Source: Candidatus Cloacimonadota bacterium (GTDB lineage Bacteria > Cloacimonadota > Cloacimonadia > JGIOTU-2). Taken from it: 64,000 nt of DNA. The stretch spans positions 9,975 to 73,974 of the forward strand of contig JAYEOL010000008.1 in the NCBI GenBank assembly GCA_034722995.1. Reading direction: 5' to 3'. The translations under genes were made by a program, and so were the position numbers. This document shows positions 18,088-18,200 of the stretch, piece by piece. Each line of letters starts with the position of its first letter. Position 1 is the first letter of the stretch. Under the pieces are notes generated by a model. That model saw only the letters and a program-made list of their open reading frames with translations, was not told the origin of the DNA and ran no database searches.

Positions 18088-18200
18088 TTAAAAATATACA
18101 TTTCTTTGTATCAATTATTTCATCTTAAATTTTAAGTTGATAAAAGTATAAGCCTGAACTTACTAATTTACCATTTTCATCCTTATCATCCCTGGAAACT
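18088..18200 (-). pseudogene. 3' remnant of a T9SS CTD-encoding gene (last ~30 codons only, with a premature stop)
   Basis: About 95 bp nearly identical to the 3' end of the 15531 gene (15534-15640). It translates ...GKLVSSGLYFYQLKI* and has no upstream gene body. Confidence 0.55.

Follow-up and report, generated by a model that had tools for sequence, protein, structure and literature searches.

An orphan fragment representing the 3' end of a T9SS type-A C-terminal sorting domain (CTD) lies on the minus strand at positions 18083–18195 of the window, the whole 64,000-nt stretch of DNA analysed here, between the leader of a cargo gene, E, and the promoter of proS. With a probability of roughly 0.6, it is a pseudogene fragment of one more cargo gene, denoted F, whose body would have been deleted illegitimately, the remaining tail being later patched from, or together with, the CTD of gene E. 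The fragment, a junction common to two lineages, the occupation of the corresponding slot by intact genes in relatives, and a mosaic tract are direct observations.

The fragment is situated at the edge of an island of five T9SS cargo genes (7299–17966, minus strand), flanked by dinB (5975–7135, minus strand) and proS (18340–20049, plus strand). The cargo genes, all on the minus strand and all with a type-A CTD, are A (7299–9158), B, encoding a C10 peptidase (9271–10374), C (10421–12295), D, with CapA/PGA_cap and PKD domains (12411–15464), and E, encoding an 811-aa protein (15531–17966). They match the type-A CTD models PF18962/TIGR04183, C scoring below both curated cutoffs. The tblastn search of the 64-kb window yields six full CTDs and a single fragment, the orphan; the sixth CTD belongs to an intact T9SS cargo gene (830 aa, 57339–59831, minus strand) located outside the island.

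A leader of about 115 nt is present in three copies, before A (9159–9270), C (12296–12410) and E (17967–18082). The third copy, whose existence had been noted in the original prediction, comprises the promoter and 5'-UTR region of E on the minus strand; alignments of this repeat family (D2) show it to be 90% identical to 12296–12408 and 88% identical to 9159–9270. On the strand of the genes, the final codons of a CTD run in register into each copy; these codons belong to B, D and the orphan, respectively.

The orphan was delineated by its translation and by alignment with five intact CTD ends. The homologous segment starts at 18083, the first base of the reverse-strand TAG stop codon (18083–18085), and extends to about 18195–18199, so the interval 18088–18200 proposed originally is in essence correct. 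It contains the last ~34 codons and the stop, and aligns in register with the last 34 codons of the five neighbouring CTDs; in the in-window alignments, the codon register of the intact CTD family is preserved down to the stop. The minus-strand reading of 18083–18195 is SRDDKDENGKLVSSGLYFYQLKI, a stop, DEIIDTKKCIFLK and the terminal stop; the translation thus ends with KKVSRDDKDENGKLVSSGLYFYQLKI, a stop, DEIIDTKKCIFLK and a stop, to be compared with EWDGKDENGKLVSSGLYFYQLKIEDEIIDTKKCLLMK and a stop at the C-terminus of gene E. In the in-window blastn search, the orphan is 91.8% identical to E (15531–15640) over 110 nt, with E=2.5e-34, while the identity to the other paralogs is 78% for C and D, 76% for B and 69% for A. 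Hence the claimed near-identity to the end of the gene starting at 15531 is confirmed, and a low-complexity coincidence with less than 70% identity, named as a possible refutation, is not borne out.

The start codon and signal peptide are absent, and so is the gene body, the latter as the original prediction had it. The similarity to the paralogs stops at about 18196, an in-frame stop is situated nine codons upstream of this junction, and only 144 nt separate the orphan from the proS start (18340); in-window blastn gives no match to this stretch. The orphan is homologous to the CTD, yet it is not a complete member of TIGR04183/PF18962. It retains only the profile positions ~47–72 of 72, the N-terminal two thirds of the domain being gone. 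A stop-free version of the peptide, from the related contig L146 described below, aligns with positions 47–68 of the 72 positions of TIGR04183 with 13.7 bits, the cutoff being 23, and the peptide from the window produces no TIGR04183 hit at E<=10. There is no complete seven-strand beta-sandwich, and the beta3–beta4 loop motif is missing; both this motif and the C-terminal motif are reported to be essential in the type-A CTD (PMC11285876). Nor is the orphan at the C-terminus of an intact signal-peptide ORF, as it has no start, a stop upstream and an internal TAA.

ProS of the window is 100% identical to one recorded for a Candidatus Cloacimonadota MAG, and the nearest genomes are Cloacimonadota MAGs as well. 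Relatives were collected by ProS scans of genome and metagenome contigs and by look-ups anchored on protein D and ProS. The ProS scans yielded only one species with a comparable island (L002, identical to L060). L140, which is the same contig as L002, encodes ProS with 91–93% amino acid identity to that of the window. The compared dinB–proS intervals were 5975–20049 in the window, 1–19494 in L140, 1717–4782 in L145, 713–7839 in L146, 2–3190 in L147 and 3–2560 in L150.

In L140, the order is proS, the gene of a C25 peptidase (867 aa), a 714-aa CTD gene, the leader and a 613-aa gene, followed by a shortened leader, an 855-aa gene, the ortholog of D and a split C10 peptidase, and then by a beta-helix protein, a 610-aa gene and dinB. 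Three intact genes (the 613-aa and 714-aa CTD genes and the 867-aa C25 peptidase) are thus situated between the E-type gene and proS in L002/L140, which is where an intact gene had been suggested to be sought. The last 113 nt of the 613-aa gene are 82% identical to the orphan, and the 855-aa gene is, over its first ~370 aa, orthologous to the N-terminus of E (85% at the nucleotide level). The leader before the latter gene (855/856 aa; L002 2806–2872, corresponding to L140 7308–7370) has a 57-nt deletion between AAATAAT direct repeats, so that the stop codon of the 613-aa gene is within the remaining leader. The C10 peptidase of L140, orthologous to gene B, is split into two ORFs (13122–13616 and 13715–14287) and is probably a pseudogene; its CTD features an extra GC-rich insert (…STRGESASGG…).

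In L141, a 1209-aa gene is followed by the leader, an 817-aa gene, the leader again, an 870-aa gene and the ortholog of D, 88% identical to D of the window at the amino acid level. E and the 817-aa gene are colinear, with 84.9% identity over the C-terminal 1.47 kb of the latter. The module formed by the CTD end of the 817-aa gene, the leader and the 5' end of the 870-aa gene is 88.5% identical, over 358 nt, to the one formed by the orphan, the leader and the 5' end of E. The slot is therefore arranged as orphan–leader–E–D in the window, 613–leader–855–D ortholog in L140, and 817–leader–870–D ortholog in L141, and the nucleotide identity of the modules, 82–88%, is the same as that of the orthologous D (87%) and proS (89–92%). 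Since in both relatives this slot is occupied by an intact cargo gene, at the level of identity expected of orthologs, the fragment is a gene remnant.

The other relatives differ at this edge. In L145 (ProS 84.5% identical at the amino acid level), dinB adjoins proS at 153 nt and the island is absent; in L147, a different CTD gene adjoins proS, and in L150, a C25 gene does. L146, the JGI contig Ga0206071_10018875 (ProS 84% identical at the amino acid level), carries dinB, a C10-CTD gene, an 822-aa ortholog of E, the leader, an insertion of ~190 nt, a CTD tail, the spacer and proS. The tail is cut at the same point as in the window, and the tail together with the spacer is identical at 167 of 180 positions (92.8%). 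The common junction and spacer imply that the truncation is a single older event, not a recent one in the genome of the window. Hence the original view of the fragment as a remnant of a CTD cargo gene in a recombining array stands, owing to the intact slot genes of L140 and L141, with the correction that, by L146, the truncation is not recent. The insertion in L146 (at about 5640–5835), situated between the E leader and the orphan and absent from the window, has an internal inverted repeat and is MITE-like or REP-like. As a whole, the dinB–proS interval is a hypervariable slot for T9SS cargo in this clade, with no genes in L145, two and the orphan in L146, five and the orphan in the window, and eight or nine in L140.

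The 67-nt spacer between the truncation junction and the proS promoter (18196–18262) is retained in L146, where 62 of the 67 positions are identical, and is absent from L002/L140, L145, L147 and L150. Local alignments with shuffle controls provided nothing above chance as its source in the C25–proS intergenic region of L002, the empty-site intergenic region of L145, L002 1–9940, L141, L003 and the dinB–A intergenic region of the window. The blastn search of 150 fetched loci detected the junction with the spacer in two of them, L146 and the Logan contig L001 (SRR26901925), and no intact F joined to the spacer was found among the fetched genomes. As the spacer has no match in L002/L140, L145 or the other fetched loci, the proS-side end of the supposed deletion cannot be mapped. 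Downstream of the spacer, the proS promoter and 5'-UTR (TTCTTGACA... GGAGG; 18263–18339, plus strand) are conserved in all relatives. Homology to the proS side begins at window position 18275 for L002, 18265 for L145, 18272 for L147 and 18275 for L150; thus the upstream end of the proS promoter region, about 18263–18275, is the common boundary of the variable region.

At its 5' junction, the orphan CTD is joined to the unique spacer, which has no homology to the paralogs. A junction of this kind needs illegitimate recombination, not unequal homologous crossing-over; the latter produces in-frame hybrids with junctions in common homology, and the orphan shows neither. Of the two mechanisms offered initially, deletion or unequal crossing-over, only the former is retained, as an illegitimate deletion, the alternative being the edge of an insertion. 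A simple tandem duplication in the 5,671-bp register between C and E was also considered and rejected, as it would place the truncated junction inside the array and not at its edge beside unique DNA.

The orphan contains an in-frame TAA (18125–18127, minus strand), whereas both gene E and the orthologous fragment of L146 have GAA at this site. It is located in an 84-nt tract (18098–18181, minus strand) that is identical to positions 15546–15629 of E except at 18127; the partner of the orphan in this tract is the 3' end of the intact gene E (15531–15644, minus strand). The sole difference in this core, A at 18127 against C at 15575, converts GAA to TAA on the minus strand, the change being from TCTTCAATT to TCTTAAATT. 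The claim that a single substitution creates the stop is therefore correct. However, since TAA is missing from L146, it inactivated nothing and arose later in an already dead fragment. Judging by this comparison, it is a late substitution specific to the lineage of the window.

Site by site, the orphan is the same as E from 18181 down to 18098 save the TAA site, and mismatches are clustered on both sides of the tract. In a Sawyer-type permutation test on 51 polymorphic sites among six CTD ends, the longest concordant run for the pair of E and the orphan comprises 24 of the 51 sites (p=0.0003), and the best-fragment p-value for this pair is below 5e-5. The last five codons of the orphan and its 3' flank are of the leader-preceding type, as in B, D, L141_817 and L140_663, whereas those of E are of the other type. 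We interpret the tract as gene conversion between the orphan and the CTD of E. Given this mosaic structure, the near-identity to E cannot be taken to mean that the lost gene had recently been copied from E.

For the window, the evidence on the direction of the transfer is mixed. The tract of the window and the orphan of L146 have the GGTAAATTAGTA patch in common, which suggests transfer from the orphan to E, but the GATGAA patch is common to the E-type genes and is not found in the orphan of L146. Under either direction, TAA must postdate the exchange. Similar patches are seen elsewhere. Within the tract, six sites distinguish the E ortholog L141_817 from the orphan, and four of these are in a patch common to L141_817 and its neighbour L141_870; thus adjacent CTDs have exchanged short patches by conversion in several genomes.

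The rest of the island bears traces of homologous exchange. The 822-aa gene of L146 consists of the body of E and a CTD end of the C type, followed by the counterpart of the C-to-B spacer of the window and the ortholog of B. Compared to the window, L146 lacks exactly the CTD end of E, D and the body of C, as expected from CTD-by-CTD homologous recombination. Furthermore, the CTD of E is 90% identical to that of A over 15700–15852. Such in-frame hybrids are the signature of unequal or homologous exchange. Gene E itself is a mosaic, as seen in comparison with L140 7371–9938, L141 3747–6200 and 6321–8933, and L146 3091–5559: its N-terminal ~370 aa are orthologous to the 855-aa and 870-aa genes (85–89% at the nucleotide level), its C-terminal ~490 aa are orthologous to the 817-aa and 822-aa genes (85–90%), and the switch is near 16858–17009, in the CarboxypepD_reg region common to all paralogs. 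On the dinB side, the short spacer that separates dinB from the last cargo gene is identical at 55 of 58 positions in L146 (1874–1931) and L140 (18276–18333), and the last gene before it is the C10 peptidase in the former and the 610-aa paralog in the latter; this pattern is compatible with the replacement of genes through recombination within CTDs, the 3' flank being spared. The comparison yields no unique series of rearrangements linking the window, L140, L141 and L146.

An additional observation concerns a GC-rich 16-nt palindrome, TCCGCCAGCTGGCGGA. It is present in three copies in the AT-rich window (10644–10659, 15656–15671 and 59886–59901) versus zero expected from shuffles, and also in L140 (16100–16115) and L146 (3216–3231 and 7603–7618). 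The CTD-coding regions of C and E each contain one of the window copies in frame, and the two occupy differing parts of the domain; the remaining copy lies between genes, upstream of a further CTD gene. The palindrome may represent a very small element that is mobile or associated with recombination.

Whole alleles of the island also seem to have been exchanged. By proS, the window groups with L002 (91.7% nucleotide identity), and L146 groups with L145 and L150 (83.5–87.6%). The edge types are distributed differently, the orphan being observed in the window and L146, C25 in L002 and L150, and the empty edge in L145; hence the edge configuration and the proS tree disagree. The window and L146 are 93.3% identical in dinB (87.6% at third codon positions) and 82% identical in proS (63%). 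The identity of proS drops from 89% to 80% along the gene, which suggests a recombination breakpoint at or inside proS. Taken together, the edges crossing the proS tree, the difference between dinB (93%) and proS (82%), and the common breakpoint on the proS side indicate transfer of whole island alleles between lineages by recombination in the flanks. Such swaps make the ancestral state at the orphan site uncertain.

The preferred sequence of events is as follows. A T9SS cargo gene, F, would formerly have been situated upstream of the leader of E. An illegitimate, that is, non-homologous, deletion would have removed its start, its body and the DNA up to ~70 nt upstream of the proS -35 element, so that the CTD tail became fused to the 67-nt spacer. 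This would have happened once, before the divergence of the island alleles of the window and L146 (about 7% at the nucleotide level), and the fragment would since have been inherited, or exchanged between lineages along with the island. The residual homology of the tail to nearby CTDs would then have allowed a short conversion with the CTD of the neighbouring gene E, yielding the 84-nt tract, and a later G-to-T change would have produced TAA in the lineage of the window. Deletion in place and the identity of the deleted DNA are parts of this scheme that we infer. Synteny favours loss of the body in place over the arrival of an already truncated island, but the unexplained spacer prevents a firm choice between the two.

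No function of the fragment is apparent from our analyses. There is no ORF in the orphan, as its ATG codons are out of frame and open at most eight codons. The region has no Rfam match at E<=1, its folding energy is no better than that of shuffled sequences on both strands (z = +0.9 and +0.8), there is no excess of promoter-like sites (7 versus 4.3±2.1 expected from shuffled sequence), and no terminator was found in it. The identity of the orphan with the spacer to L146, 92.8%, is similar to that of dinB (93.3%), the body of E (90.5%) and the leader (87–91%). Compared to the third codon positions of dinB (87.6%), it shows a weak excess (p=0.018), so weak constraint may exist; only two lineages carry the fragment. 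The ~190-nt insertion tolerated by L146 between the fragment and the leader argues against a role of the orphan in the promoter of E. We infer that the orphan is a non-functional relic; it lacks a promoter-proximal start and cannot encode a working sorting signal.

Several other explanations were weighed against the deletion of F. An artefact, that is, chance AT-rich similarity or an assembly chimera at the repeated CTD sequence, might be suspected, as the genome is AT-rich and the short-read contig L001 breaks inside the repeat, at 18152. However, the blastn E-value and the codon register held to the stop are incompatible with chance, and L001 is 100% identical to the window over 18152–20103, covering the junction of the truncated CTD and the spacer, so this junction is not peculiar to one assembly. 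Moreover, L146, an independent metagenome contig from another species, has the same order of the orphan, the leader and an E-like gene; given that, misassembly of the orphan–leader link in the window is unlikely, and the artefact as a whole is hardly credible. As for other assemblies of the same strain, an exact-protein look-up of E found none, and that of ProS yielded a single Logan contig of 1,952 nt. A less improbable, though still unlikely, explanation is that the fragment marks the edge of an insertion: a multi-gene segment from another array or strain would have been inserted illegitimately beside proS with its end inside a CTD, and the gene body would never have been here. Indeed, an empty site exists (L145, with 153 nt between dinB and proS), the proS-side boundary at ~18263–18275 is the same in five configurations, as expected of segments that are dropped in or swapped, the duplication units are bounded inside CTDs, the last codons and the leader having been copied together three times, and the spacer cannot be derived from the intergenic regions of the L140 or L145 type. 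On the other hand, the conserved order of a CTD gene, the leader, an E-type gene and D in L140 and L141 makes loss in place simpler; an arbitrary cut would be expected at the other end as well, where gene A beside dinB is intact; and the insertion leaves the spacer unexplained too.

Another possibility, a doubtful one, is that the fragment has been retained as useful, either as an upstream regulatory region of the E promoter or as a promoterless block of homology, akin to a silent cassette or a landing pad, which would donate sequence to expressed CTDs or anchor cargo-gene capture and exchange at the edge of the island. It could account for the conservation of one and the same junction in two lineages with a proS identity of only 82%, for conservation slightly above that of the dinB third codon positions, and for the exchange of the 84-nt tract with an expressed gene, and recombination by CTDs does reshape the island, as in the hybrid E ortholog of L146 and the converted patch of L141_817 and L141_870. 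However, the fragment encodes the conserved signal domain rather than a variable part, so its donation gives no diversity; it is present in a single copy; its conservation is within the range of its neighbours; and there are no structure or motif signals. The nonsense change and the insertion in L146 have been tolerated, which argues against a spacing-sensitive promoter element, and the leaders of L140, L141, A and C work with different CTD sequences upstream.

Compared with known systems, the orphan is closest to the gene remnants that deletion leaves in bacterial paralog arrays undergoing concerted evolution by gene conversion, from which it differs in nothing essential: it is a short 3' piece with no start or body beside intact paralogs, it is inherited across species, and it has a patchy near-identical tract in common with a neighbouring paralog. 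Like such remnants, it is homologous in register to a functional family, and its position is occupied by an intact gene in L140 and L141. Silent cassettes, such as pilS of Neisseria, contain variable sequence, occur in multiple copies and donate it one-way, generating antigenic diversity. Like them, the orphan is a promoterless partial copy near an expressed paralog, with a recombination tract in common; unlike them, it is a single fragment of a conserved signal domain from which no diversity is gained, and hence it is not a cassette of the pilS kind. Orphan cdiA-CT/cdiI and rhs-CT modules are situated downstream of the main gene and code for alternative toxin tips, which are functional and paired with cognate immunity genes, and they are maintained by selection. 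The CTD orphan resembles them as a 3' fragment without the 5' body beside a full-length gene, whose homology permits recombination, but it is located upstream, encodes a partial sorting signal with an internal stop and has no partner gene.

For the island as a whole, a parallel is provided by the T9SS proteins of Porphyromonas gingivalis (gingipains and Hag adhesins), whose CTD-bearing genes have repeated modules in common that are shuffled through homologous recombination and gene conversion, with alleles swapped between strains (PMC5266723). The island, too, has hybrid genes and patches of converted CTD sequence, and its edge alleles are at odds with the proS tree. The differences are that it belongs to another phylum, and that its cargo is environmental and hydrolase- or adhesin-like rather than virulence factors; in P. 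gingivalis the rearranged units are adhesin domains, whereas here it is a dead CTD tail. Our literature search produced no report of this setting, a T9SS cargo island between dinB and proS in Cloacimonadota.

The orphan is ordinary in kind and is a mildly useful evolutionary marker. It marks the history of the island, in which illegitimate deletion would have acted besides homologous recombination and gene conversion mediated by CTDs. The unique junction of the orphan is a character of single origin, and the island alleles it identifies are common to lineages with proS only 82% identical, so related Cloacimonadota have exchanged the island. In annotation, CTD-like matches adjoining proS should not be taken for genes. 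A more speculative reading, which we consider doubtful, is that the CTD tail with the spacer serves as a fixed homology anchor that, together with the conserved flanks, allows CTD-by-CTD capture, swap and deletion of incoming or intragenomic cargo genes. If it is true, the dinB–proS interval would be a hotspot at which cassettes of T9SS cargo are exchanged in Cloacimonadota, and this could explain both the presence of zero, two, five, or eight to nine cargo genes and the edge alleles crossing the proS phylogeny. More generally, the orphan supports the idea that the conserved coding sequence of the sorting signal is itself the recombination substrate that shuffles the repertoires of secreted proteins.
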